From assembly GCF_042854785.1 (NCBI RefSeq), contig NZ_BAABXI010000001.1:2795656-2835655 (forward strand): DNA of 40,000 bases, read 5' to 3'. The translations under genes were made by a program, and so were the position numbers. Origin of the DNA: Bacteroides sp. f07 (GTDB taxonomy: Bacteria > Bacteroidota > Bacteroidia > Bacteroidales > Bacteroidaceae). The notes under the pieces were generated by a model. The model was not told the DNA's origin and made no database searches. It saw only the letters and a program-made list of their open reading frames with translations. Positions 7,137 to 36,977 of this stretch are shown here, in pieces. Position 1 is the first letter of the stretch. Each line of letters begins with the position of its first letter.

Positions 7137-7949
7137 TCAGAACATAGCCAGTTGCCCGTCATTTACAAATTTCACCTCAATGGCGGGTTTCTTTTCAAAG
7201 AAACAATAGGCTGCTATTGCTGACAATGCATTTGCTATGAAGTTATTAAATGAACGATGTCTGGAGTGTTCAATCTGTGCAATGTTCTTCAATTCGTCAT
7301 TGACAGTTTCAATCAGAGCTCTCTTCCTAAGCAATATCTTATCAGCGATACTCATCAAGGAGTTCTTCATATTATTCTTGACCTTAGTAATCGTCTGTAT
7401 ACCATTAAGAAAGAGGTTCTCGAACAAAGTCTGACCGATATATCCCTTGTCCGCACACAATTTTCCCTTTATGTTTTCCAGAAACTTTCCTTGTTTCAAT
7501 GGTTCCCTGTCATCCACATTGCCGGGAGTAAACATAAAATTGAGAATCTCTCCTTTATCATTGATTATCAGATGCAGCTTGAATCCGAAGAACCATCCCA
7601 TAGAGCATCTTCCACGCTCGGCAAGTCCTTCGAAAGTCTTGTGAATCAATATTCGTTGGTTACGGCAGACACGGAAGGGAGTGGAATCGACAAAACTGAT
7701 ACCGGTACAACTGCCTAGCAGAACCTTTTTGATGAAAATGGTCAGAGGGAGAAGTATTTCTTTTTCCAGTTCCACAAAACGATTATAAGACACACATCGG
7801 GGAAACATTGGTATGTGAATATCCCAATTCACCACATTTGCAAGATAGTGTAGTTCATCAGGTTGTGTGAATACAGACAAATTGTTTAAGTCAATGTCTG
7901 GATTTCCAATAATGTAGTCATCCATATATTGTTTTACTTCATCTTTCAT
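7137..7949 (-). CDS. IS982-family DDE transposase (copy probably 5'-truncated or degenerate)
   Basis: The 270-aa ORF carries family motifs VSYNRFVEL, GISFVDSTP, GWFFGFKLHLIINDKGEI, NVDDREPL, ADKGY and IETVNDELKN. The N-terminal ~55 aa are shorter and more divergent than I remember for family members. I found no terminal inverted repeats by eye. Confidence 0.8.
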   Translation of the reverse strand: MKDEVKQYMDDYIIGNPDIDLNNLSVFTQPDELHYLANVVNWDIHIPMFPRCVSYNRFVELEKEILLPLTIFIKKVLLGSCTGISFVDSTPFRVCRNQRILIHKTFEGLAERGRCSMGWFFGFKLHLIINDKGEILNFMFTPGNVDDREPLKQGKFLENIKGKLCADKGYIGQTLFENLFLNGIQTITKVKNNMKNSLMSIADKILLRKRALIETVNDELKNIAQIEHSRHRSFNNFIANALSAIAAYCFFEKKPAIEVKFVNDGQLAMF

Positions 7950-7963
7950 ATTTTATTCATATT

Positions 7964-8019
7964 GACGATAATGGGTTGCAGCTTTCCGCCATTAGGCGGA
8001 ACAAGTGCTTGTTAGTAGC
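7964..8019 (-). repeat. attC-like site R1 (distal end of array, 3' of cassette 12)
   Basis: Plus strand: GACGATAATGG GTTGCAGCTTTCCGCC ATTA GGCGGAACAAGTGC TTGTTAGTAGC. Imperfect hairpin with a CCGCC/GGCGG inner stem. The outer arm TTAGTAGC pairs with GCTACTAA in R2. Confidence 0.8.
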
Positions 8020-8710: not shown

Positions 8711-8764
8711 GCTACTAATTGTTTTCAGCTAATTGTTTTCAGTATTTAGTTGTTTGTTAGACCG
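8711..8764 (-). repeat. attC-like site R2 (degenerate, with 14-bp internal duplication)
   Basis: Plus strand: GCTACTAATTGTTTTCAGCTAATTGTTTTCAGTATTTAGTTGTTTGTTAGACCG. CTAATTGTTTTCAG occurs twice in tandem. The core TTGTTA contains the stop codon of cassette 11. Confidence 0.65.
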
Positions 8765-9065
8765 TTCCTAACTTATCATGTAACCCTGTTTGTGATAATA
8801 TTGAATAGAAATTATCAAATTTCCCGATCAGTTCATTAAAAGATGCGAACTCATATCTTTCGGAGAATAAACAATTCCCTGTTTCGATACTAAGGATTTC
8901 CATAACACAAGAATTATCATCCCATAGTGTTACACGACCTAAATTAGTATCATTATCTATATCAACATACATACTATGTACATAATCCGTATTTTCATGT
9001 ATTGTGTATGTACATGACTGATTATTAATCTGTTCTTTTATATAGGAAATGAATTTTCGTATCAT
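8757..9065 (-). CDS. Cassette 11: small hypothetical protein
   Basis: 102-aa ORF, acidic, no signal peptide. The stop TAA is the core TAA of site R2. The ATG is 8 nt downstream of the 3' end of intron 1. Confidence 0.6.
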   Translation of the reverse strand: MIRKFISYIKEQINNQSCTYTIHENTDYVHSMYVDIDNDTNLGRVTLWDDNSCVMEILSIETGNCLFSERYEFASFNELIGKFDNFYSILSQTGLHDKLGTV

Positions 9066-9114
9066 ATTATTTTATCGAGTAGGTCAGCCCTCTTTCGGGG
9101 GCTTTCCCCTCTAA

Positions 9115-9148
9115 GAACCGTACTTGATAGTTTCCCATCATACGGCTC
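9115..9148 (-). ncRNA. Group II intron domain V (copy 1)
   Basis: The minus strand reads GAGCCGTATGATGGGAAACTATCAAGTACGGTTC. It is 34 nt, with the AGC triad, a 2-nt bulge and a GAAA tetraloop. Confidence 0.9.
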
Positions 9149-9186
9149 AAGCATTTCTAAATTTAATTTTCATAAATTAAACCGGC

Positions 9187-10725
9187 TCAACTTACTTTCC
9201 TAAAAGTTTTCCCATTAGTCAGTTCTCGTTTCGCACAGAGTTTCCACGTAAGATATTCCTGCCATTGCGGGTCAAACGGATTGAGTTTTGCTTTGACCTT
9301 TCTATACCTTAAAATAGGGATGTCGGCTAATTGTTCCAACCTTATCCTTTCTTTGTTATCGGCTTTCTTGAAGTCTGTGGCGAACACCCAGTTTCTCTTC
9401 CCTTCCATTTTAAAATATCTCTCCTTTACCCATCGCCAAGTTTTCTTGTCATGTCTTCTGTGTGCCCACCTTTTGAGTTGTTTCACCAGTATGGTGTCCA
9501 GATCGCTGAACGTCTTCTTGGCGGATACAAATCTAAAGTAGTTGCCCCAACCTCTGAGTACCGGATTTAGTTTCCCGATCAAGTCCTCCTGTTTAGCGAC
9601 TTTATTCTTGAAGACCACTTCATGCGTTTTCTCCACAAACCTCTTGATACTCTTCTTTGAGGGTTTAATCAATACGTTCCTTTTATATCTTCGTATGTTA
9701 TATCCCAAGAAGTCGAACCCTTTAGTGATATGGGTTATCAACGTCTTCTCCTGCGAGAGTTCCAGTCCCCTGACGGCTAAAAAGTCTTTTAAGTCCTCCC
9801 TTATCTGTTCTAGCAGTTCCTTTGTGTCCGCTGAGACAACAAAATCATCCGCATAACGTATGAGATGAACTTTGGTACGGTAACGTTTACCGTTCACGTA
9901 CCTTTCTCTGTACTTCATTAGCAACATCTTTTCCATTCCATCCAGTGTGGCGTTTGCAAGTGTTGGCGATATAATACCGCCTTGCGGTGTTCCAGCCGTT
10001 GTAGGAGTGAGCAACTTGTTAAAGATAGCTCCACATTTCAACCACTTTCTTAGTATCTGCTTGTCGATTGGTACATTATCTACAAGCCATTCATGGCTGA
10101 TATTGTCGAAGCATCCTTTGATGTCTCCCTCCAATACCCACATCGGTGGGTTAGGTTGGTGGCTGAACAATATGTGTATCGCATCTATGGCATCTGCCGT
10201 ACTCCTGTATCTTCTGAACCCGTATGAGTTCGGGTCAGCCATTGTTTCCATTACCGGTTCGAGTGCCATTAGATATAACGCCTGCATTGCCCTATCTTTC
10301 ATGGTGGGTATGCCCAGCGGGCGTTTCTTGCCGTTGCTTTTGGCAATGTACACCCTTTTCAGTGGAAGTGGCTTGTAGCCCCTCCGTCTCAACGAAGCAA
10401 CCGCTTCGAGTTTATGCGCTTGGGTAGTCCATTTGATTTGGTCTACCCAAGCGGTTCTTTTTCCTTTGTTGGAAGTAACCCGTTTTACCGCCAGCGCTTT
10501 TGCGGCAAACGAGGTAGTCAGGATACGCTGCAAGGCTTTCACCTTTGCGTATCTCTTTTCCTTTTGAGCCTTTACAATCCGAGCTTGAAGCTTCCGCACA
10601 GCGGTTTGAAGCTTGTTCCAGTCTATGCTGTTCCAAGCCCCTTTGGGTCTGCTCCTGTGTGAAGACGCACACTTTGTTTTCACTCCGTCCATTTGCTTTT
10701 CTCCATTTAAAAGTTCTTCCTTCAT
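9187..10725 (-). CDS. Group II intron reverse transcriptase/maturase (copy 1)
   Basis: RT motifs RPLGIPTMKDRAMQ, TPQGGIISP and YADDFVV. Maturase X domain LNPVLRGWGNYFRF. No HNH/En domain. The start is uncertain: ATG at 10725 or 10692. The track ORF reaches 10875 by read-through of intron RNA sequence. Confidence 0.9.
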   Translation of the reverse strand: MKEELLNGEKQMDGVKTKCASSHRSRPKGAWNSIDWNKLQTAVRKLQARIVKAQKEKRYAKVKALQRILTTSFAAKALAVKRVTSNKGKRTAWVDQIKWTTQAHKLEAVASLRRRGYKPLPLKRVYIAKSNGKKRPLGIPTMKDRAMQALYLMALEPVMETMADPNSYGFRRYRSTADAIDAIHILFSHQPNPPMWVLEGDIKGCFDNISHEWLVDNVPIDKQILRKWLKCGAIFNKLLTPTTAGTPQGGIISPTLANATLDGMEKMLLMKYRERYVNGKRYRTKVHLIRYADDFVVSADTKELLEQIREDLKDFLAVRGLELSQEKTLITHITKGFDFLGYNIRRYKRNVLIKPSKKSIKRFVEKTHEVVFKNKVAKQEDLIGKLNPVLRGWGNYFRFVSAKKTFSDLDTILVKQLKRWAHRRHDKKTWRWVKERYFKMEGKRNWVFATDFKKADNKERIRLEQLADIPILRYRKVKAKLNPFDPQWQEYLTWKLCAKRELTNGKTFRKVS

Positions 10726-11347
10726 TTTGTAAAGAAACACCAGGCAGAAGTCAGCCTGCTTTCGCAGCGGGATAATGTCACCTTGCTTGTCACGCAGGCA
10801 TTGGCTCAATCCCGTATCCTCCCTCATTACAAGGGTGGCATTCGCTTTTTCCACCATCTCATACCCGCATACCATTCGGCTTTACTTACGTTCGGCTTAC
10901 CTGTCATTCATGGCAGGAGATATACGGGCTTACCAAGTTTCGCCCTCCAACTTACGGACGGATTAGGGTCTGTCCATCTGCCGACGGTGCTTTGTCCGTG
11001 TAACCCTCACCAAAAGAAAGGTTATCCGACCGTTTACCATTTTGGTCAAGGCTCGCCAGCATCTTGAGCCTTTCATTAGTCACGACAGTTCCCGACAGTT
11101 CAATTAATTTACCCATACCGTCCAGCTTAGCCCCTTAGTCGCCTGATGCTGGCGGCAGTTGATTCCCCTCACGGTTCTGTCTTCCCTTGCGGCGGGTTCG
11201 TTGTCGAACAGCTTCACACAACGTCATTGCTGGTGATGCATGTGTTCCAAGCTACTGCTGACGGAACAGCAGGTTCAGACAGCCTGTTTTCAACCCGTGA
11301 AATGGGTGCTGAACAATTAAGAGAGGCGACTTGCTTGTCGCACCTCA

Positions 11348-11407
11348 GTTGCTAATGGGTTGCAGCTAATCGCCATTTTAAGGCGATTGAGGTGCATGTT
11401 GTGTTTA
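11348..11407 (-). repeat. attC-like site R3 (occupied by intron 1)
   Basis: Plus strand: GTTGCTAATGGGTTGCAGCTAATCGCC ATTTTA AGGCGATTGAGGTGCA TGTTGTGTTTA. The ORF-proximal core is degenerate (TTGTG instead of TTGTTA; 1-nt deletion). Confidence 0.75.
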
Positions 11408-11427
11408 TTCCTTGCAATTTTAAGAAT

Positions 11428-11766
11428 CTATTCAGTAGTAATATCAAAATCTTGTTTATTTCTCCATGCTATCCTAAGATAATCACCTCTTATTAAACCT
11501 TTATCACGGTAATATCTAACTATTTCAGAGGGCGACCAATCCTTGCCATTGGAAAATAATGTTCCGATTTCTATTAACTTTTGAAAAAGAACTGCACGCT
11601 TTTCAACATCATCAGTAGGCATAGAAATAGAATAGTATGGTTCTACTTTTTCAAATCCAAGACTGATAAGTTCATTCTTAAAATTGTCATTATTATTAGC
11701 TATCAATATATTATTTCCTGCCAATTCAATAGCAACGACTTTATCTTTTAATTTTTCATTCATCAT
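11428..11766 (-). CDS. Cassette 10: small hypothetical protein
   Basis: 112 aa from ATG 11766 (MMNEKLKDK...). The track ORF starts at a GTG at 11775 that lies inside site R4. Confidence 0.6.
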   Translation of the reverse strand: MMNEKLKDKVVAIELAGNNILIANNNDNFKNELISLGFEKVEPYYSISMPTDDVEKRAVLFQKLIEIGTLFSNGKDWSPSEIVRYYRDKGLIRGDYLRIAWRNKQDFDITTE

Positions 11767-11768
11767 AT

Positions 11769-11825
11769 TAAACACTAATGTGTTTCAGCTAACTGCGTTT
11801 AGCTGTTTAGGTGATTGTTATGTGC
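11769..11825 (-). repeat. attC-like site R4
   Basis: Plus strand: TAAACACTAATGTGTTT CAGCTAA CTGCGT TTAGCTG TTTAGGTGATTGTTATGTGC, with a perfect 7-bp stem. The cassette 9 ORF reads through the core and stops in the loop. Confidence 0.75.
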
Positions 11826-12167
11826 CTTATTGTTCTCCTCTTCTATTTTCATAAGAAATATTTCTTGCAAATCGCCACTTATTATTTTACCGTTTAGAGT
11901 TAATTCAAAAAATCCTTCTTGTTCGGCAAAGGATGATACATTATCCAGTTTGGCAAAAACATTAGATAGGGTATCTGTCATAACTAAACGCACGAAAGTT
12001 TTTAGCTCTTTTCGCTGTTTTTCATTCAACTGGCTATATAACTCTTTACTATCATTCCAAGGCTCATAACCACCTTCTATTGATGGAGTATTTAGAGTGT
12101 TGAAATATCGACTTAAGTTATCCATTATTTCTTTTTTTAATGAATTGACAAATTCTACATCATTCAT
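11799..12167 (-). CDS. Cassette 9: small hypothetical protein
   Basis: 122-aa ORF, acidic, no signal peptide. Its 3' end overlaps site R4. Confidence 0.6.
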   Translation of the reverse strand: MNDVEFVNSLKKEIMDNLSRYFNTLNTPSIEGGYEPWNDSKELYSQLNEKQRKELKTFVRLVMTDTLSNVFAKLDNVSSFAEQEGFFELTLNGKIISGDLQEIFLMKIEEENNKAHNNHLNS

Positions 12168-12186
12168 ATTTTTCCATTTTTAAGTT

Positions 12187-12244
12187 GCACATAATGTCCG
12201 GCAGATAATCGACTATTAAGGTACTTTATCTGTTTGTTAGCAAT
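12187..12244 (-). repeat. attC-like site R5
   Basis: Plus strand: GCACATAATGTCCGG CAGATAA TCGACTATTAAGGTACT TTATCTG TTTGTTAGCAAT. The core TTA (12237-12239) is the stop codon of cassette 8. Confidence 0.8.
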
Positions 12245-12551
12245 CTAATTCATTTCCGTTTAATAATTCTATATCTCCTAATGCTTTATATTCCCTGTCC
12301 AAATCTTCTTTTGTGAATAGGTAATAATTGTCCTCAAATCTTGGCATATCATAGCCTTTTACAAAAGATAAGAAAGAGAATATTTCTGCATCTATATCTA
12401 TACCTTGATTATCCTTGTTATCCAAAGCAAATAATAGATTATCAGCTTTCATCGAAATTCTATTTCTAATACCTTCTACATTATATTCTTCATTATCAGG
12501 TAACTCTTTAAGTATCTGATAGAAGTTTATTATCTGTTGTTTTACTTTCAT
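12237..12551 (-). CDS. Cassette 8: small hypothetical protein
   Basis: 104-aa ORF, acidic. The stop codon is embedded in the R5 core. Confidence 0.6.
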   Translation of the reverse strand: MKVKQQIINFYQILKELPDNEEYNVEGIRNRISMKADNLLFALDNKDNQGIDIDAEIFSFLSFVKGYDMPRFEDNYYLFTKEDLDREYKALGDIELLNGNELDC

Positions 12552-12568
12552 TCATAATTTGTTTAGTG

Positions 12569-12624
12569 ATTGCTAATGGGATGCAGCTTGCCGCTGTTAG
12601 GTGGCACAGGTGCTTGTTATAAGC
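12569..12624 (-). repeat. attC-like site R6
   Basis: Plus strand: ATTGCTAATGGGATGCAGCTTGCC GCTGTTA GGTGGCACAGGTGC TTGTTATAAGC. The stem has one bulged base and one C:C mismatch. Confidence 0.8.
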
Positions 12625-13091
12625 TAATTTTCGTATTCAATCTTGTAATCTTCATATACATTGAATACAGTTTCACAATCAGATAAAATACTTTCAAGCA
12701 AAGGTTTGACCTCACTATTCCAATCCAACTTACCCAAACCTGCACCTATTTTCGGGAGCGACACAGTTTTAATACCTCTGCTTTCGCATACTTTTTTCAA
12801 GCGTTTCAAGCCTTTATTCAGATATGTAAGTTCTGCATGATACATATCCGGTTGTGTAGCGATGTAGATTATACCCGGAGAGAAACCTTTGATTTCTCCT
12901 ATAAACATATCACCTGCTTGAAACTTGGTGTTTCGTGTGTACTTCTTAAAGAGTTTTTGGATTTCAGGGAATTGACTTGATAGCTTAAAGGCAAGCCCAG
13001 TTCCTAATCCTTCTTGTGAGCCAACAGCCACACCTTGCGCTATGTACTCATCTTTGCTTTGCAATATATCTCCCGAAATGTATTTTATCAT
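12624..13091 (-). CDS. Cassette 7: macro-domain (ADP-ribose-binding/hydrolase fold) protein
   Basis: 155-aa ORF. MIKYISGDILQSKDEYIAQGVAVGSQEGLGTGLA..., a later KTVSLPKIGAGLG and a small size fit stand-alone macrodomain proteins. Confidence 0.6.
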   Translation of the reverse strand: MIKYISGDILQSKDEYIAQGVAVGSQEGLGTGLAFKLSSQFPEIQKLFKKYTRNTKFQAGDMFIGEIKGFSPGIIYIATQPDMYHAELTYLNKGLKRLKKVCESRGIKTVSLPKIGAGLGKLDWNSEVKPLLESILSDCETVFNVYEDYKIEYEN

Positions 13092-13111
13092 ATTGTTTCC
13101 GTTTTTCTGTT

Positions 13112-13170
13112 GCTTATAATAGGTTTGTGAATAACTGACCGTTAAGGCAGTTCATTCGCTTGTTACCAAT
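13112..13170 (-). repeat. attC-like site R7 (same subfamily as R12)
   Basis: Plus strand: GCTTATAATAGGTTTGTGAATAACTGACC GTTA AGGCAGTTCATTCGC TTGTTACCAAT. In the cassette-sense strand the stem GAATGAACTG/CAGTTATTC has one extrahelical G. Confidence 0.8.
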
Positions 13171-13173
13171 ATT

Positions 13174-13461
13174 TCAATCTCCACTTACCCAAATTGTGTT
13201 TTTATCTATTATCATAGGACGCAAATTCTTAACGAACTCTATTATAATTTTCATTGATTGTTTATCCGACGTCTTTATATAATCATTTGCCAAATTAATA
13301 AGTAATTCAAGATTTTGAGGTATCAATCTTGTATCTCCATATTCATCAATACTCAATCCTGTCTTTACATGAAACTGCAAGAAGACGGGTTGTAATATTC
13401 TCAATTCAACATCATTCAAAGCGAAGTGATGATTATTCATTGTATTGCTAAAATCTAACAT
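13174..13461 (-). CDS. Cassette 6: small hypothetical protein
   Basis: 95-aa ORF with no recognisable motifs. Confidence 0.55.
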   Translation of the reverse strand: MLDFSNTMNNHHFALNDVELRILQPVFLQFHVKTGLSIDEYGDTRLIPQNLELLINLANDYIKTSDKQSMKIIIEFVKNLRPMIIDKNTIWVSGD

Positions 13462-13476
13462 TTCAATTATTTGTTT

Positions 13477-13532
13477 ATTGGTAATGGTAGCTAACCGACC
13501 TTTACGGGGAGGTTAAGCCGCTTGTTACCTGC
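13477..13532 (-). repeat. attC-like site R8
   Basis: Plus strand: ATTGGTAATGGTAGCTAACCGACC TTTAC GGGGAGGTTAAGCCGC TTGTTACCTGC. The cassette-sense stem GCTTAACC/GGTTAGC has one extrahelical T. The core TTA (13525-13527) is the stop codon of cassette 5. Confidence 0.8.
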
Positions 13533-13860
13533 TTTTTCGAGTTATTACAATATCATCAAAACTTAATAGCAAAGACTGACCGTTTGGTCTATATTCCTTC
13601 CAATCTTCAATGTCGGGACTTTCATAATCCATCATTATATGATAAAAGGAGTAAAGACCGAAATTTTCTTGAGGTAAGTCCGGCAGACTATGTATGTCAT
13701 AACATCCAACACCTTCCAATCCTTTTTCTTCAATCCGTTTTAACCATCCTAAAGCCTTATCTATTTGTTGAAGATAGGGAAGTTCCTGTTGATTGCCATG
13801 CTTCAAAGCATCAACAGTTTTTATTCGTTCTTTTTGTAATAACTCAATTATATCTTTCAT
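13525..13860 (-). CDS. Cassette 5: small hypothetical protein
   Basis: 111 aa from ATG 13860 (MKDIIELLQKE...). The track ORF extends to 13950 only because intron domains V/VI happen to be open in frame (MLEPYDGKLSSTVLRGG...). Confidence 0.6.
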   Translation of the reverse strand: MKDIIELLQKERIKTVDALKHGNQQELPYLQQIDKALGWLKRIEEKGLEGVGCYDIHSLPDLPQENFGLYSFYHIMMDYESPDIEDWKEYRPNGQSLLLSFDDIVITRKSR

Positions 13861-13910
13861 TTTATTTATCGGATAGGTCGGAGGCATTGCTGCCCCTTTC
13901 CCCCCCCTAA

Positions 13911-13944
13911 GAACCGTACTTGATAGTTTCCCATCATACGGCTC
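13911..13944 (-). ncRNA. Group II intron domain V (copy 2)
   Basis: Identical 34-nt GAGCCGTATGATGGGAAACTATCAAGTACGGTTC on the minus strand. Confidence 0.9.
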
Positions 13945-14021
13945 AAGCATTTCTAAATTTAATTCTCATAAATTAAACCGGCTCAACTCGCTTTCCTTGA
14001 GGTCTTTCTCTTAGTCAGTTC

Positions 14022-15536
14022 TCATTTAGCACGGAGTTTCCACATCATATATTCCTGCCATTCGGGGGCGAACGGGTTCATTTCTGCTTTAACTTTCCTA
14101 TACCTTAAAATAGGGATGTCGGCTAATTGTTCCAACCTTATCCTTTCTTTTTTATCGGCTTTCTTAGAGTCTGCGGCAAAGCCCCAGTTTCTACGCCCTT
14201 CCGTTTTGAAATATCTCTGTTTCACCCATCGGCGGCTTTTCTTGGGATGTCTTCTGCTTGCCCATCTCTTGAGTTGCCTTACCAAGATGGAGTCCAGATT
14301 GCTGAACGTCTTCTTGGCAGATACAAACCTAAAGTAGTTTCCCCATCCTCTCAGTACGGGATTGAGCTGCATAATCAAATCCCCCTGTTTGGCGGTCTTG
14401 TTCCCGAATATAACCTCGTGAGTCTTTTCCACAAATCTTTTCACGCTCTTCTTTGCGGGTTTTATCAATATGTTCTTTTTGTATCGGCGTATATTGTAAC
14501 CCAAAAAGTCAAAGCCCTCGGTGATATGTGTAATCAGCGTTTTCTCCTCCGATAGTTCCAGCCCCCTGACGGCTAAGAAGTGTTTCAAGTCCTCTTTGAC
14601 TTGTTCCAGCAGTTCCCTTGTGTCAGCTGATACGACAAAGTCATCCGCATAACGTACCAAATGGACTTTGGGGCGATATCGTTTTCCGTTCACGTATCTT
14701 TCCCTGTACTTCTTTAGCAACATCTTTTCCATTCCGTCCAACGTGGCGTTCGCCAACGTCGGCGATATAATGCCACCTTGCGGTGTCCCTGCCGTTGTGG
14801 GGGAGAGTAACTTGTTGAAGACCGCTCCGCATTTCAGCCACTTCTTTAATATCTGCTTGTCGATTTGTACATTATCCACAAGCCACTCGTGGCTGATGTT
14901 GTCAAAGCACCCTTTAATGTCTCCCTCCAGTACCCATTGTGGCGGGTTAGGCTGGTGGCTGAACATTATATGCAGCGCATCTATGGCGTCCGCTGTGCTT
15001 CTGTATCTTCTAAACCCGTATGAATTCGGGTCTGCGGTCGTTTCCGTCACAGGTTCGAGAGCCATCAGATATAATGCCTGCATTGCCCTGTCTTTCATGG
15101 TGGGTATGCCCAACGGGCGTTTCTTGCCATTGCTCTTGGCGATGTACACCCTTTTCAGTGGAAGTGGCTTATAGCCTCTCCGTTTTAACGAAGTTACTGC
15201 TTCGAGCTTTTGCGCTTGGGTAGTCCATTTTATATTGTCCACCCCTGCGGTTCGTTTCCCTTTATTGGAAGTGACACGTTTGACTGCCAGCGCTTTCGCA
15301 GCAAACGAGGTAGTCAAGATACGTTGCAAGGATTTTACCTTGTTGTATCTCTTTTCCTTTTGAGCCTTTACAATCCGTACCTGAAGCTTTCGCACAACAG
15401 CTTGTAGCTTGTCCCAGTCCATACTGTTCCAAGCTCCTTTCGGTCTGCCCCTGCGTGAAGATGCACACTGTGTTTTCACTTCGTTCATTTGCCTTTCTTC
15501 ATTTAAAAGTTCTTCATTCGTTTTGTAAAGAAACAC
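14022..15536 (-). CDS. Group II intron reverse transcriptase/maturase (copy 2)
   Basis: 504-aa ORF that aligns with copy 1 throughout. I counted about 60 substitutions in about 470 aligned residues by hand, with no frameshifts. YADDFVV and the X domain are intact. An alternative start is ATG 15488. Confidence 0.9.
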   Translation of the reverse strand: MFLYKTNEELLNEERQMNEVKTQCASSRRGRPKGAWNSMDWDKLQAVVRKLQVRIVKAQKEKRYNKVKSLQRILTTSFAAKALAVKRVTSNKGKRTAGVDNIKWTTQAQKLEAVTSLKRRGYKPLPLKRVYIAKSNGKKRPLGIPTMKDRAMQALYLMALEPVTETTADPNSYGFRRYRSTADAIDALHIMFSHQPNPPQWVLEGDIKGCFDNISHEWLVDNVQIDKQILKKWLKCGAVFNKLLSPTTAGTPQGGIISPTLANATLDGMEKMLLKKYRERYVNGKRYRPKVHLVRYADDFVVSADTRELLEQVKEDLKHFLAVRGLELSEEKTLITHITEGFDFLGYNIRRYKKNILIKPAKKSVKRFVEKTHEVIFGNKTAKQGDLIMQLNPVLRGWGNYFRFVSAKKTFSNLDSILVRQLKRWASRRHPKKSRRWVKQRYFKTEGRRNWGFAADSKKADKKERIRLEQLADIPILRYRKVKAEMNPFAPEWQEYMMWKLRAK

Positions 15537-16148
15537 CAGACGGAAGTCTGCCTGTTTTCACAGTGGAATGATGTCGCTTCGCTATTTTATATTATGTATG
15601 GCTACGCTCAATTCCTATCCTCCCTCATTACAAGGGTGGCGTTCGCTTTCTCCATCCTCTCATACCCGCATACCGTTCGGCTTTACTTGCGTTCGGCTTA
15701 CCTGCTGTTCATGGCAGGAGATATACGGGCTTACCAAGTTTCGCCCTCCAACTATCGCCCGGGTTAGAGCCCGTCCATCTGACGGCGGTGCTTTGTCCGT
15801 GTAACCCTCACAACAAGAAAGGTTATCCGACCGTTTACCATTTTGGTCAAGGCTCGCCAGCATCTTGAGCCTTTCATTAGTCACGACAGTTCCCGACAGT
15901 TCAATTAATTTACCCATACCGTCCAGCTTAGCCCCTTAGCCACCTGATGCTGGCGGCAGTTGATTCCCCTCGCGGTTCTATCTTCCCTTGTGGCGGGTTC
16001 GTTGTCGAACAGCTCCACACAACGTCATTGCTGGTGATGCATGTGTTCCAAGCTACTGCTGACGGAACAGTAGGTTCAGACAGCCTGTTTTCAACCCGTG
16101 AAATGGGTGCTGAACAATTAAGAGAGGCGACTTGCTTGTCGCACCATT

Positions 16149-16206
16149 GTTGCTAATGTCCAGCGGCTAACTGACTTTTCAGAAGTTAAGCCGTTTGTTA
16201 TCAGTC
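16149..16206 (-). repeat. attC-like site R9 (occupied by intron 2)
   Basis: Plus strand: GTTGCTAATGTCCAGCGGCTAACTGAC TTTTC AGAAGTTAAGCCG TTTGTTATCAGTC. The cassette-sense stem CGGCTTAAC/GTTAGCCG has one extrahelical T. Confidence 0.8.
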
Positions 16207-17028: not shown

Positions 17029-17044
17029 ATCTTTTATTTTTATT

Positions 17045-17101
17045 GGTTGCTAATGGTTTGCAGCTAATCGCTTTCAGTACGATTAGCCACATGTTATCGG
17101 C
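17045..17101 (-). repeat. attC-like site R11 (looks like an unoccupied intron target)
   Basis: Plus strand: GGTTGCTAATGGTTTGCA GCTAATCG CTTTCAGTA CGATTAGC CACATGTTATCGGC, with a perfect 8-bp inner stem. The left half is nearly identical to R3. Confidence 0.8.
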
Positions 17102-18278: not shown

Positions 18279-18719
18279 TTAAATCTCTTCTTCTAAAATA
18301 TCGTCCAACGGACTTTTAATTTTGCTTTTGTAAGTGTCTGCAATATGGACGTACATCTCTGTTGTCTTAATATTTTCATGCCCCAACAGTTCTTTTATGA
18401 TTTTCAAGTCCGTTCCTTGTTCTATTAAATGTGTAGCGAACGAATGGCGGAACAAGTGGGGATATACTCTTTTTGTTATACCTGCTTCATGGGCTATCTC
18501 TTTCAGTTTTTTGGAAACGATACTTTCAGAGAATTGTACTCCGGCTTCACGTTCAAAAAGCCACTTTTCCGACTGATATGCTATCCTATATTCTTCCAGT
18601 TTATTGATAAACGGTTTGGATAGCAGCGTATATCGGTCTTTCTTCCCCTTCCCCTTTCCCTGTCGCACATGTATCAGTGAACAGGAAATGTTTATATCAT
18701 CCGGTTTTAAATTCAGCAT
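18279..18719 (-). pseudogene. Tyrosine recombinase, C-terminal catalytic half only (XerD-like; N-terminal half missing)
   Basis: The 146-aa ORF starts just after where the box-I Arg should be (MLNLKPDDI...). It keeps GKGKKDR, HLFRHSFATHL, LLGHENIKTTEMYVH and the C-terminal IKSPLDDI. Only about 50 aa lie between KDR and GIT, so the IntI-specific extra domain is absent. The upstream sequence is closed by stops in the same frame. Confidence 0.8.
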
Positions 18720-18761
18720 TATGTTAATTCATTTTCTTATCTACTTAATGACAATATTGGG

Positions 18762-18769
18762 CAAATTTA
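18762..18769 (-). promoter_or_regulatory. Candidate -7 promoter box upstream of recombinase remnant and array
   Basis: The minus strand reads TAAATTTG (TAnnTTTG consensus) about 43 nt upstream of ATG 18719. I saw no clear -33 TTTG. Confidence 0.3.
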
Positions 18770-19050
18770 CGCTATTTCCTTCTATTCTCTATTCTGATTT
18801 TCATCACATACATTCTGATAACTCATCAATATCGGTATAACGTCCCTAAAATACGGTTTTATTTCATCACCCACAAAAAAGCTGTTAGTTTTTTCCTCTA
18901 TCCTATAAAATAGTCTCTCTTGACTGGCAATTGCACAATGATCTGTTACATAATTCATAACTATACAATGATCAGTCTCCTATTCTCAGCATTTATAAAT
19001 GCCACTATGAGATCATTGCCGTTCATCGATTTCACCTGATTGTCGAAATA

Positions 19051-19080
19051 CCGATGAATAAGGAGATAGCGGGTGAAAGC
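19051..19080. repeat. Inverted repeat, left copy (core)
   Basis: The reverse complement of CCGATGAATAAGGAGATAGCGGGTGAAAGC matches 19395-19424 at 28 of 30 positions. Weaker similarity extends to roughly 19028-19122. Confidence 0.85.
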
Positions 19081-19162
19081 AAGTGGTAAATTCAAGTAAA
19101 ACTGAACATCAGCGGTTTCACCCTGTCTTTTCAAAATATCCCTTGAGCTAAAACAAATATCA

Positions 19163-19225
19163 TTATAGCTAATCCGGATATGCTTATAGCTAATCGAAAT
19201 ATGCTAATAGCAAATCCGCTGTCAG
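19163..19225. repeat. 3 x 21-bp tandem direct repeat (TTATAGCTAATCnnnATATGC)
   Basis: Units at 19163-19183 (TTATAGCTAATCCGGATATGC), 19184-19204 (TTATAGCTAATCGAAATATGC) and 19205-19225 (TAATAGCAAATCCGCTGTCAG, degenerate). They contain the GCTAAT motif also found in the cassette-site cores. Confidence 0.8.
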
Positions 19226-19246
19226 GTATTAATAGATAATCCATCA

Positions 19247-19334
19247 GGATCTATATATCCAACACATTGAATCTATATACTTACCGCATTGAATCTATAT
19301 ATTCAGCACGGTGGCTCTATATGTCCAGCAATCG
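19247..19334. repeat. 4 x 22-bp tandem direct repeat (GRMTCTATATRYYY...), iteron-like
   Basis: The four units are GGATCTATATATCCAACACATT, GAATCTATATACTTACCGCATT, GAATCTATATATTCAGCACGGT and GGCTCTATATGTCCAGCAATCG. Confidence 0.85.
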
Positions 19335-19394
19335 GTATAAATAAATTTGAAAGGTGAAAGCAATAACGGGAGATTTCACCTTAATTTTCTCTAC

Positions 19395-19424
19395 GCTTTC
19401 ACCCGCTATCTGCTTATTCATCGA
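19395..19424. repeat. Inverted repeat, right copy (core)
   Basis: GCTTTCACCCGCTATCTGCTTATTCATCGA. It lies inside a plus-strand open frame (19347-19529, TTG-initiated) whose translation resembles a recombinase N-terminal SAM-like domain. Confidence 0.85.
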
Positions 19425-19840
19425 TGTTTCAGAGATAAGGTGAAACAGGTGGAATTTATAAGTCAAAAGTTCATGTTATACTTATGTGAATCAGTAATTA
19501 ATTTGATACCTTCGGTTTACCTCTACTGATTATTAAAGATAAAACAACTTTTGTTTCTTCTCTCATTCCCCTGCATTTTCACAATTCCGCGACAAAGAAC
19601 AAACTCATTTTCTTCTTGGTTTATCATGGATATTGAATAAGAAAAACATAACAGAATAAGCAATAATTCATAATTAGCCTATCCAAATGAGAAATATAAA
19701 CGATAAATGATTACTATTTACTCTACAAATCCACTCATTTCCTACTATAAAACCAGAGTAATCGCAACAAAACAGATTTCGATATATAGGTCAAAAAAAA
19801 TCCTTTTTTAGTTGGCTATACAAAATTATCTTCAAAAAGA

Positions 19841-26722: not shown

Positions 26723-27832
26723 TTATTGCAACTGTGACAACTCAACATTCTGAAAAGCAATACCGCCGATATTCTTGAATCCATATTCATATAACACTCC
26801 AATCGTACCGTCAGGATAACGGGCAATATCAGAATATCCTCCATAATCACTGCCTGTATAGGAATATTGCTTCTTCCAGGTTACGCCGTCGTCCTCGCTC
26901 ATCTTCAACGTATTATTATTGCGATTGGTCTGGCTATCCGGATTCGAGAACAAAATAATTCCTTTACCATCATCTCCCAAACCGTAAAAGAGTATGGAAC
27001 CCTGACATATCGGCTCTTTCAATGTAGTGTACTTACACGGACTCCATGTCAGTCCACCATCCGTACTGGTGGAAACCATTCTATATTTCTCTGTATTGGA
27101 CTGCTTACGCATATTCAGCATTAAATCACCGTTACTTAATTCGGTTACGGTACTTTCATTCGTATAGTCCACGTCCATGATACCACCCAAATGCCAGGTT
27201 TCCCCTTTATCATCCGAGTATATCACATGAGAACGCCCCGCACCGGAAGTAGTGGTATTGTGATTACACGGAACCACAATTCTCCCCTTATGAGGTTCAA
27301 ACTGTTTTACTATTCCATGACAAGGTCCCGTAGCATACCATCTGTATTTGTCAGGGGTGACGGAAGCGGTTATGTCTTTTTCTTTTGCCCATGTCAATCC
27401 CTCATCATCCGAATAAGTCATAAATATGGAATTAGTCCCCGTTGCTCCCGGATTCCAGCAAGATAATAAAATGACGCGATTGATATCCGGAAGATAAATA
27501 GGCACTTGATTACGGCAACGATTTTCGCCATCATCCTTGACCGTTATCAACGGTCCCCAAGTCTTCCCTTTATCTGTAGAACGCTTTAATACGATGTCGA
27601 TATCCCCTTCATCTTCAGGTCCATTACGACGTCCCTCGGCAAATGCCAATATCGTGCCACTATTAGTAATCACCATAGTGGGAATTCTGAAATAAGCATA
27701 TCCTTCCCTATTGATAGAATAAGGCTTGCTTGTGGGAACCGGTAAAGAAGATATGCTCGGCTCCACATCATTGCATGCTGTCGATATAAACAACAGGCAC
27801 ACCCATACAAATATTAAGTTTAAATTCTTCAT
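26723..27832 (-). CDS. GH33 exo-alpha-sialidase (compact, lipoprotein)
   Basis: Lipobox LFISTAC. FRIP-like YFRIPTM. Five Asp-boxes: STDKGKTW, SDDEGLTW, SDDKGETW, STDGGLTW, SEDDGVTW. Confidence 0.85.
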   Translation of the reverse strand: MKNLNLIFVWVCLLFISTACNDVEPSISSLPVPTSKPYSINREGYAYFRIPTMVITNSGTILAFAEGRRNGPEDEGDIDIVLKRSTDKGKTWGPLITVKDDGENRCRNQVPIYLPDINRVILLSCWNPGATGTNSIFMTYSDDEGLTWAKEKDITASVTPDKYRWYATGPCHGIVKQFEPHKGRIVVPCNHNTTTSGAGRSHVIYSDDKGETWHLGGIMDVDYTNESTVTELSNGDLMLNMRKQSNTEKYRMVSTSTDGGLTWSPCKYTTLKEPICQGSILFYGLGDDGKGIILFSNPDSQTNRNNNTLKMSEDDGVTWKKQYSYTGSDYGGYSDIARYPDGTIGVLYEYGFKNIGGIAFQNVELSQLQ

Positions 27833-35336: not shown

Positions 35337-36977
35337 CTACCTGTTTAGAATTTCCGTCAAATCAATTTTAATAAAAGCCATATTTGCCTGGCTGCTTTCA
35401 TATAATATCCCTATTGAATTTTCATCTATTGAAGTGATACTGGAATAACCGGCACTACGATATTGGTCAAACAGAATCCAGTATTTCTCAGGCCATGTCA
35501 GTCCGTCGTCAAAACTAACTTTCAAAGTCAATTTATCCCGTGTCTTATAATCACTGGGATTGGCAAATAATAGTATGCTTTTCTTTTCTCCATCCACAGT
35601 ATAATCATGGCGATGTAAACTTGCCATACACGTCGGTTCCACCAATGCTTTCCGTGACGTGGGATGCTCTGTCCATGTTTCGCCCAAGTCTGTCGTCGTA
35701 CAGATTCTCCGGCCATTCACTTCTTTATTACCCCGATTTCTGTTATCGCGCATATTCAGCATTACAGTACCGTCACTTAATTGGGCTGCATTACATTCCG
35801 TCACATTCGAATAAGCCGGATTGCTGGTTGTCCATGTCTTTCCGTGGTCTTTACTATATGTAATATTGGAGAATGCTGCTCCTTTATCATCACGTCCTTG
35901 TGTAGGAAAGACCAGAGTACCATCCGCCAGTGTTATTCCTTGTCCGGGAGCCGGAGCAAACAACCACCATTCTGGGCGTTTGGTCTTACCTGTTATATTA
36001 TCGGGGAAGCTCCATGTCAGTCCGTCATCCGTGCTTTTAGTTATCAGGAACTGACAGGTCTCTTTCAGACCAGTTCCGGGTTGCGAGCCTTTCTTTCGCC
36101 ACTGGTGTATCCAGTAAGTACTGTTTTCATTCAAGCCCTCTATCCACTTGCCATTATCATCCAATGCACCGTGCATCCACAATCCGGCTATATAAATATC
36201 ATTTGTGTGTTTATCCACAAGGATGCACGCATCACTCACTCCATTAAACTTTTGCGGCAGTCCTCCCCATTCTCCCATATCCAACACCGTCTGGATGGGT
36301 TGCCATGTCAGTCCTTTGTCAAAGCTACGATGAAGAGCGATATCTATGTTTCCCTGCAAATCGCGAGTCAAATCATAACGGGCATCAAATATAGCCAGCA
36401 GAGTTCCGTTGTTACTGGTAGCCAATCCCGGAATACGTGAAGAAACAATACCATCCTGTCCTTTCTGTCTTAGTGCCACTCCCACTCTTAGGGGGATAGC
36501 CTCCTTATTCGAGACTTTCAGTTCTCCCCGACTGGTTTTTATCCGGCTGCAATTCACACTAATGCGGTGTGTCAATGGAACCGTATCCTTCAATGTCACT
36601 GCTATCCAAAACGACAAGGAATCATCTTTCACTTGTATATTATCTGTAAAAGATATCTTCCGTGCAGCGGGCATCGGTTTACATATCAGACGGGATTCAT
36701 CTATCAGCCCGTTTTTATGAGTTCCATATACCGCAACAGAAAGGATATCAGACAAGTCCGTACTTCCTTGCAAATCGACATCAATCTGCCGGATAGTGTA
36801 AGGACGGCTGCCTGTTTGAATCAAAGTTGCCTTAATAGTCGGATTAATCTGCTTCTTGACCAAAACAGGGATGACAGGCCTTTCCAGTTCGAACCTTATA
36901 TCTTTACCCAAAGATATATCCGGTATCCATAGCAAAATCATCGAAAATATGATAAATATTTTCTTACTTACTTTCAT
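35337..36977 (-). CDS. nanH: GH33 sialidase with N-terminal accessory domain
   Basis: 546-aa ORF with a signal peptide. RIP motif (SSRIPGLA). Asp-boxes SFDKGLTW, STDDGLTW, SKDHGKTW, TTDLGETW, SFDDGLTW. Confidence 0.85.
   Translation of the reverse strand: MKVSKKIFIIFSMILLWIPDISLGKDIRFELERPVIPVLVKKQINPTIKATLIQTGSRPYTIRQIDVDLQGSTDLSDILSVAVYGTHKNGLIDESRLICKPMPAARKISFTDNIQVKDDSLSFWIAVTLKDTVPLTHRISVNCSRIKTSRGELKVSNKEAIPLRVGVALRQKGQDGIVSSRIPGLATSNNGTLLAIFDARYDLTRDLQGNIDIALHRSFDKGLTWQPIQTVLDMGEWGGLPQKFNGVSDACILVDKHTNDIYIAGLWMHGALDDNGKWIEGLNENSTYWIHQWRKKGSQPGTGLKETCQFLITKSTDDGLTWSFPDNITGKTKRPEWWLFAPAPGQGITLADGTLVFPTQGRDDKGAAFSNITYSKDHGKTWTTSNPAYSNVTECNAAQLSDGTVMLNMRDNRNRGNKEVNGRRICTTTDLGETWTEHPTSRKALVEPTCMASLHRHDYTVDGEKKSILLFANPSDYKTRDKLTLKVSFDDGLTWPEKYWILFDQYRSAGYSSITSIDENSIGILYESSQANMAFIKIDLTEILNR

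Follow-up and report, generated by a model that had tools for sequence, protein, structure and literature searches.

The minus strand of a 40,000-nucleotide (nt) stretch of Bacteroides sp. f07 (contig NZ_BAABXI010000001.1, positions 2,795,656 to 2,835,655; the whole stretch is referred to here as the window) carries an integron-like, co-directional array of 13 short cassettes, c1–c13, running from ~18.3 kb to 7.1 kb. The starts of two of these cassettes, c5 and c11, lie directly 5' of a group II intron (intron B and intron A, respectively), and both introns are in the sense orientation relative to the cassettes. In c5 of the window, TTAGCAACAATG stands in place of the native 12-nt 5' exon TTACCTGCTAAG, and the replacement covers exactly these 12 nt. 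In c11, TTAGCAAC is the cassette's own start, and complementarity between the two cassette ends has been lost via a 2-nt deletion at the 3' end (GGTCGCTAA to GGTC--TAA). The replacement at c5 is attributed to recombination between intron copies, a mechanism inferred from sequence comparison, and the probability of the combined reading, an exon swap of this kind at c5 together with an own start and an end deletion at c11, is estimated at about 75%.

Terminal Complementarity of the Cassettes

The cassettes of the array are separated by imperfect inverted repeats of 50–56 nt that start with (T/C)AACA and end with (C/A)ATTA. With the crossover taken to lie between A or G and the following TTA, the first and last 12 nt were tabulated for each cassette. 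Perfect terminal complementarity of 8–10 nt is found in 9 of 12 cassettes (c1–c4, c6–c9 and c12), while the complementary run averages 3.4 nt for non-cognate start/end pairs; as in integrons, the first bases of the cassette are complementary to its own R'' box. The exceptions are c5 (start at 16156, TTAGCAACAATG; end at 13525, ...GCAGGTAA; complementary run of 3 nt), c11 (start at 11355, TTAGCAACTGAG; end at 8757, ...CGGTCTAA; run of 4 nt) and c10 (start TTAGTGTTT, end AAACAC-AA; run of 2 nt owing to a 1-nt gap). A preliminary description of this DNA had presented c5 and c11 as the only cassettes that break the rule. Its coordinates, strings and expected starts for these two cassettes are correct as read and both do fail, but c10 fails as well.

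The rule extends to related arrays, in which 41 of 51 distinct intron-free single cassettes have at least 8 of 9 complementary bases, and several of the other 10 reflect site-calling errors of the analysis script. An nhmmer model built from 12 sites missed some sites and misplaced some R'' boxes, making counts of perfect runs unreliable; the baseline count was therefore limited to single cassettes and to identity over the first 9 bases. Within the sample, cassettes start most often with TTAGCAAC. An automated census of the arrays sampled placed it at the beginning of 10 of 68 unique inter-site segments, some of which cover more than one cassette, and at least six different intron-free cassette sequences begin with it, among them c3 of the window:

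17042–17053, minus strand: native start of c3, TTAGCAACCAAT, with complementarity to the c3 end GGTTGCTAA; an ordinary TTAGCAAC-type terminus

Replacement of the Native Start of c5

The features that bear on c5 are as follows, where IEP denotes the intron-encoded protein, ORF an open reading frame, aa amino acids and EBS1 exon-binding site 1.

16157–16200, minus strand: attC-like site of c4, the constant left flank of intron B
16145–16156, minus strand: 5' exon of intron B, TTAGCAACAATG, foreign to c5 (native 12 nt, TTACCTGCTAAG)
13868–16144, minus strand: group II intron B, 2277 nt, GTGCG...CCGAT, with an IEP ORF at 14022–15536 that has a private premature stop
15810–15815, minus strand: proposed EBS1 of intron B, TGTTGT (type 1), pairing at 6/6 positions with the present ACAATG and at 4/6 with GCTAAG, native to c5
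13525–13867, minus strand: rest of c5; 3' exon beginning AAATAAA, ORF 13525–13860 (111 aa), end GCAGGTAA
13108–13119, minus strand: native 5' terminus of c7, TTATAAGCAACA, an empty target site of the same intron family

The identical 111-aa c5 protein is present in 14 contigs, and the nine shown are all intron-free. In these nine, CA is followed by TTACCTGCTAAG-AAATAAA-ATG, and the cassette ends in G(C/T)AGGTAA. A 92%-identical c5 allele in six further contigs has the same TTACCTGCTAAG start. Intron-free c5 arrays align to the window exactly from position 13867, the first 3'-exon base after intron B. An exact-protein look-up with the 141-aa extended c5 ORF returned no record.

The left flank of intron B was followed through an exact look-up of the c4 protein, for which 20 contigs were read. 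In all 14 c4–intron junctions read (13 fetched loci, among which L029 and L047 are one contig, and the window), the c4 site is followed by TTAGCAACAAT(G/C) and then by the intron. In four independent assemblies with sufficient sequence (L047, L048, L051 and L052), the c4 site and TTAGCAACAAT(C/G) lead through the intron into GAAAAACGG, which is c7 from base 13, and c5 and c6 are absent. In L001 and L015, c7 carries the intron together with its native exon, TTATAAGCAACT preceding the intron and GAAAAACGG following it. The cassette c7 is consequently known in three states, empty (the window), invaded (L001, L015) and hybrid with loss of c5–c6 (L047, L048, L051, L052), a pattern characteristic of recombination between two intron copies in direct orientation.

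The introns themselves are mosaic. Introns A and B have 7 differing columns within the first 300 nt and diverge by ~15% thereafter (15–40 per 150 columns), and intron A is like the L001 copy in the ORF but unlike it in the 5' part. Between intron B and the L047 copy there are 34 differing columns in the first 450 nt and almost none mid-intron. The nearest relative of intron B, the L051 copy, differs from it at 11 of 2284 columns, with 8 of the differences in the last 334 (binomial P = 2e-5); recombination of a single left copy with various right partners would be expected to give such a pattern. Together with the 6/6 and 4/6 pairings of the proposed EBS1, these observations suggest that the left arm of intron B goes with the TTAGCAACAATG exon and that intron homology served to join c5 to this arm.

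It is proposed that one intron copy lay downstream of c4 in a TTAGCAACAATG-type cassette (putative start CATTAGCAACAAT(G/C), putative end ...ATTGTTGCTAA) and that another lay in c5. Homologous recombination between both copies would have removed the intervening stretch, leaving a chimeric intron at c5. The c5 junction is exact at the intron site and the intron is mosaic; the c5 parent is known only in its intron-free form. For relaxase genes, DNA recombination is documented to have produced chimeras whose joint falls exactly at the site of a group II intron (PMC7947834). An import of c5–c6 from an L058-type array was also considered and rejected, as a search for the right-hand crossover gave evenly spread mismatches and no boundary.

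End Deletions in c11 and c10

The features around intron A are as follows.

11399–11406, minus strand: end of c10, AAACACAA, with a 1-nt deletion relative to AAACACTAA of other arrays; the third rule-breaker
11344–11355, minus strand: 5' exon of intron A, TTAGCAACTGAG; 8 nt equal to the native c11 start are followed by 4 nt that deviate from the native CGAT(T)
9074–11343, minus strand: group II intron A, 2270 nt, with an intact IEP (9187–10722, or 9187–10875 from an upstream ATG)
8757–9073, minus strand: rest of c11; ORF 8757–9065 encoding a TriTu immunity protein (PF24689), end CGGTCTAA (8757–8764)

Seven intron-free c11 contigs, carrying alleles of 89–91% identity, start with TTAGCAACCGATT followed by AAAA(T/C)AAT and ATG. 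These alleles begin with TTAGCAAC and end with GGTTGCTAA or GGTCGCTAA; longer reads of their ends give GGTTGCTAAC or GGTCGCTAAC, and ...GGAACGGTTGCTAAC or ...GGAACGGTCGCTAAC. The c11 end in the window, CGGTCTAA, equals GGT(C/T)GCTAA minus 2 nt and reads GGAACGGTC--TAAC in its longer form, the deletion also creating the stop codon of the 102-aa product. This 102-aa allele occurs on 18 contigs, of which 10 are shown; c12 lies downstream in 10/10, and intron sequence lies upstream in 6/6 contigs with enough upstream sequence. In L076 (ERZ27316147 k141_120846), three consecutive tyrosine-recombinase genes (407+, 335 and 335 aa) occupy positions 1–2500 at the place of the 5' part of intron A, an arrangement that looks like a recombinase-trio element inserted into the intron.

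The exact c10 protein is found in seven contigs, all with an intact AAACACTAAC where the window reads AAACAC-AAC. Both sites flanking intron A have private deletions in the R'' box (deleted bases in brackets: c10, AAACAC[T]AAC; c11, GGTC[GC]TAAC), and the TAAC core is intact in the other ten sites of the window. With the recombinase gene of the array truncated, the end deletions of c10 and c11 may represent decay, and the paired R'' deletions may lock the intron-bearing cassette in place.

These results divide the interpretation given in the preliminary description, which held that the two intron-bearing junctions share a 5'-exon core that does not belong to the cassette that follows. This view is half right. 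For c5 the 5' exon is foreign, and the predicted intron-free start, TTACCTGC, was found in the nine contigs with the identical protein and the six with the 92% allele. For c11 the core is carried by the intron-free alleles themselves, the start being its own and the mismatch a result of the end deletion; every intron-free allele starts with TTAGCAACCGATT, refuting the predicted TTAGACCG. Intron-free homologues beginning with the same core, the outcome that had been named as speaking against the idea, were found for c11 only. The further suggestion that c5 and c11 could not re-form a proper site on excision was overstated, as every in-array site is already a hybrid of the halves of two cassettes and the recombinase is truncated.

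The intron-free alleles also bear on cassette genesis (the Leon and Roy model), which was among the explanations offered at the outset. According to this model the intron would have joined a recombination site to new genes, and c5 and c11 would never have possessed a matching 5' end. In both cases the intron does lie between a recombination site and an ORF. However, intron-free c5 and c11 with complementary termini are ordinary members of many other arrays, also at the first position beside the recombinase, and the model as published deals with IIC-attC introns on the opposite strand (PMC7923331, PMC3001079). Cassette genesis is thus not supported and is regarded as very improbable.

Class and Target Choice of the Introns

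Both introns match the Rfam models RF00029 (68 and 63.5 bits) and RF02012 (101 and 96 bits) and are bounded by GTGCG...CGAT, fitting 5' GUGYG and 3' AY. The IEPs of both contain the Pfam domains RVT_N, RVT_1 and GIIM, and no endonuclease domain was detected in either with Pfam. Domain V, GAGCCGTAT, has an AGC triad. The best solved relative of the intron A IEP is the T.el4h maturase 6ME0 (E = 1e-154, 519 bits), compared with only 117–122 bits against IIC reverse transcriptases; T.el4h belongs to the IIB1 introns and has a CL1 reverse transcriptase (PMC8643678). Judged by these matches, the intron family appears to be IIB1/CL1-like.

Intron B has several private changes that are absent from all 18 other aligned copies: a C-to-T change that creates a premature stop ~13 codons before the normal IEP end (14022–14070, minus strand), two extra G residues in domain VI, and a further C-to-T change, 6 nt away from the 3' splice site (13868–13900, minus strand). 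It may consequently be immobile or poorly spliced. If the introns splice, the ligated exons would read TTAGCAACAATG-AAATAAAATG for intron B and TTAGCAACTGAG-AAAATAAT for intron A. In the locus L022, the intron interrupts the start codon, ATG, of the cassette ORF downstream of it (..AATA before the intron, TGAAAAGAG.. after it), so the downstream protein would be made only after splicing.

Other copies were gathered through a protein-based scan of species genomes, an exact-pattern metagenome scan with the first 19 nt of the intron, and exact-protein look-ups. This gave 11 distinct insertion sites, the two of the window included, and in all 11 the intron begins 12 nt (13 nt in two) past the TTA of CATTA. 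The 5' exon varies by site (TTATAAGCAACT, TTAGCTGCTGAA, TTATCAACAAAA, TTAGTTGCAATA, TTAGCCACCTGA, TTAGTGATAACA and TTATCAACGGAA), and complementarity of the 5' exon to the cassette's own end is kept in five testable intron-bearing cassettes, those of L001 (c7), L018, L020, L022 and L027. The complementary runs in these five are 7–8 nt, L027 having 8/9 with one interrupting mismatch. Normal insertions therefore retain the terminus of the recipient, and the expectation that TTAGCAAC always accompanies the intron proved false.

A search for the exact complement of the last six exon bases failed to identify EBS1 in introns A and B; the candidate was found via the relatives L002 and L003 when G-U pairs were allowed. 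A predicted hairpin loop at intron nt 325–338 holds one of two EBS1 hexamers, type 1 (TGTTGT, with exons xCAAYR) or type 2 (TTTGGT, with exons ACYGAR), and the type tracks the exon: pairing at the copies' own sites totals 58/66, and permutation of the labels equalled this total in 37 of 20000 trials. The native c5 exon GCTAAG pairs 6/6 with the type-2 EBS1. The remaining candidate exon-binding sites are:

11009–11014, minus strand: proposed EBS1 of intron A, TTTGGT (type 2), pairing 6/6 with ACTGAG
11074–11079 (intron A) and 15875–15880 (intron B), minus strand: proposed EBS2, CTAATG, complementary to the conserved crossover core CATTAG (exon positions -14 to -9)

The proposed EBS2 is at intron nt 265–270, 60 nt upstream of EBS1, where the local fold leaves it unpaired. 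In the distant relative L002, the aligned site covaries with the exon, CAAAG standing opposite CTTTG. The suggested target rule is that the intron inserts into the sense strand 12–13 nt past the crossover between CA and TTA, with EBS2 pairing to CATTAG and EBS1 pairing to cassette bases 7–12. The constant offset would follow from an EBS2 that pairs with the crossover core. Since TTAGCAAC would give the full intron-binding site 2 (IBS2) and the first two pairs of IBS1 (A-C with the last two EBS1 bases), and is the commonest cassette start, its recurrence at two insertions is expected.

In L025/L030/L036 and L028/L031, the intron lies at sites without an attC-like match that have CATTAG, a spacer of 2–3 nt and IBS1. 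Recognition of a stem-loop, as for IIC introns, had been prompted by the constant 12-nt offset and was rejected, as the non-attC sites keep CATTAG and IBS1; the AGC triad and the CL1-like IEP also count against it. Insertion at non-attC sites favors recognition by base pairing over recognition of hairpin structure.

Weighing the Readings of the Junctions

Several points weigh against the reading of the two junctions given above. Neither a donor cassette natively starting with TTAGCAACAATG nor an intron-bearing c5 with its native exon (TTACCTGCTAAG followed by GTGCGACAAG) was found, and the two parents proposed for the c5 junction remain putative. The c4–intron–c5 join occurs in the window only, among the contigs retrieved, and a 2.3-kb repeat could in principle mislead an assembler. 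The c11 exon matches the native c11 start at 10/12 positions, and the rest of c11 is 97.5% identical to L057, yet the last four exon nt read TGAG where the native start has CGAT(T). The exon likewise matches 10/12 positions of TTAGCAACTTGG, the start of the cassette that follows c10 elsewhere and a candidate donor, and a second exon swap, between two TTAGCAAC-type cassettes, may have occurred at c11. The chance of both end deletions adjoining intron A is ~3% (calculated post hoc), and their adjacency to it may not be a coincidence. Finally, EBS2 is proposed from one complementary hexamer, its position and one distant relative, and a random hexamer match within ~600 nt has a chance of roughly 0.15. 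Scans of viral_contigs with 15-mers of the 5' exons gave >200 chance matches, none of them in an attC-like context.

The restriction of the c4–intron–c5 join to the window would also fit an assembly artefact, in which the join is a chimera from the collapse of two near-identical intron copies; a mis-join would give the same 3' clustering of the differences of intron B. Set against this are the analogous c4–intron–c7 hybrid in at least four independent assemblies, the collinearity of the remaining window array with sister arrays at identities of at least 98.7%, and the occurrence of the block c5-c6-c7-c8 elsewhere. An artefact is accordingly judged unlikely.

Retrohoming with co-conversion is judged slightly less likely again. 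Here the intron would have entered c5 (and c11) at the native sites and ~12 nt of the donor 5' exon would have been copied along, for example by complementary DNA (cDNA) synthesis running into an unspliced donor transcript. The replaced stretch of c5 is exactly the 12-nt 5' exon, the changes in the otherwise closely matching c11 cluster in the last four exon bases, and both present exons pair 6/6 with the resident EBS1, all of which co-conversion would accommodate. However, the recipient exon is kept in the five other insertions described above, and general co-conversion of the donor exon is for that reason not supported. The same exon and c4 flank are joined to c7 in sister arrays that lack c5–c6, a pattern of deletion and not of conversion; c4 beside an intron-free c5 was seen in no array retrieved; and the EBS1 of intron B suits the native c5 site poorly (4/6). 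Bacterial retrohoming usually proceeds without exon co-conversion. Of the three explanations put forward in the preliminary description, homologous recombination between intron copies is consequently the best for c5, and co-conversion and cassette genesis are not favored.

The Array and Its Recombinase

At the 5' end of the array lies a fragment of a recombinase gene:

18279–18719, minus strand: 5'-truncated tyrosine recombinase gene, co-directional with the cassettes; Pfam PF00589, profile positions 42–170 only

The fragment represents the C-terminal part of the protein. Its homology to the longer L057 homologue, which is itself a partial copy, begins at L057 residue 90, and a recombinase ORF of 144–146 aa is also called in the sister assemblies L047, L049, L050, L053 and L054. 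The 0.8 kb upstream of the recombinase (window 18279–19500, minus strand) contains the short direct repeats tatatagattcaatg (three copies) and gattagctataa (three copies). At the other end, c13 (7137–7971, minus strand; start at 7971, TTATCGTC) is cut by an insertion sequence with a DDE transposase (PF13612), and the array ends there; the insertion sequence is also present in the sister contigs L073, L075 and L078. In L047, L050 and L053, a 95%-identical c6 homologue is the first cassette beside the recombinase (L047, ~2025–2312), and in the window c6 is found only downstream of c5. The first position of the c6 homologue in the sister arrays is consistent with excision of the cassette and its re-insertion there. 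A 50-nt direct repeat (27108–27157 and 35749–35798, plus strand; 80% identical, 8.6 kb apart) falls in a large minus-strand gene cluster downstream of the array.

The cassettes encode members of the Pfam families TriTu, SUKH, Macro and DUF6578, and the GC content in 1-kb windows of the array is 32–39% where cassettes predominate and 41–49% within the introns. As an integron-like set of orphan immunity cassettes, the array matches the description of the rAID arrays of Bacteroidales. The rAID-1 arrays comprise a tyrosine recombinase and immunity genes of one orientation, with intergenic repeats that resemble those of integrons (bioRxiv 10.1101/471110; PMC12247911). They were defined by a tyrosine recombinase that lies 5', resembles XerD and is >44% identical to BF9343_RS08045 and at least two co-directional downstream genes with a GC content of at most 41%, immunity-type products and repetitive intergenic sequence (Ross et al., 10.1101/471110). 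Downstream of the recombinase fragment, the window has 13 co-directional cassettes with low GC content, immunity families and repeats.

Implications and Comparison with Known Systems

The assembly of rAID arrays, which are abundant in human gut Bacteroidales, has been called an open question (PMC12247911). The complementarity table shows that rAID cassettes obey integron-like rules with a crossover between CA and TTA, and the intron data point to a recombinase-free route by which arrays may lose and re-join cassettes. A mismatch between the ends of a cassette can stem from intron recombination or from small end deletions, and intron-free alleles are needed to tell these apart. The pairing of EBS2 with the crossover core, if confirmed, would provide a simple programmable rule for targeting cassette starts. 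Taken further, it can be speculated, at odds a little short of even, that a CL1/IIB1 lineage has specialised on the 5' ends of rAID cassettes via EBS2–CATTAG pairing and that its dispersed copies act as a recombinase-independent engine that deletes and re-joins cassettes, makes mismatched half-sites and reshapes arrays even after loss of the recombinase.

The array resembles rAID-1 in its co-directional tyrosine recombinase, its short low-GC immunity genes (TriTu, SUKH, Macro) and its integron-like repeats, and differs in the 5' truncation of the recombinase gene. The word "intron" is absent from both rAID papers (bioRxiv 10.1101/471110; PMC12247911).

The closest parallel for the proposed events at c5 is provided by the relaxase chimeras of Ll.LtrB and Ef.PcfG (PMC7947834), where intron copies likewise serve as portable homology and one left arm is found with different right partners. 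In contrast to these chimeras, the exons in the array are non-coding cassette termini, that is, recombination half-sites and not protein domains, and the outcome, known here from sequence alone, is the deletion and re-joining of whole cassettes.

The IIC-attC introns (S.ma.I2 and relatives; PMC3001079, PMC7923331) are similar in that a lineage has specialised on the recombination sites of cassette arrays. These introns enter TTGT/T in R'' on the bottom strand, lie antisense to the cassettes, and recognise a DNA stem-loop and an IBS1 of 3–4 bp, without an EBS2 (PMC3001079, PMC7923331). The introns of the window are instead in the sense orientation, 12–13 nt 3' of the R' crossover, and have an AGC triad (not CGC), an apparent EBS2 and a CL1-like IEP. 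By strand and position, by triad and by IEP scores, they do not belong to the IIC-attC introns.

A further relative in kind is UHB.I2, from a cassette array of a soda lake (PMC7923331), which is also a IIB1/CL1 intron in the orientation of the cassettes and immediately after attC. It differs in being a single occurrence with unusual boundaries (UUGCG..GU), in another host and another type of array, and a target rule, population data and hybrid junctions have not been described for it. The mechanism considered here is consequently of a known kind, while the setting, with a IIB1/CL1-like intron family directed at the first 12 nt of rAID cassettes and remodelling the arrays, appears to be undescribed in the literature searched.

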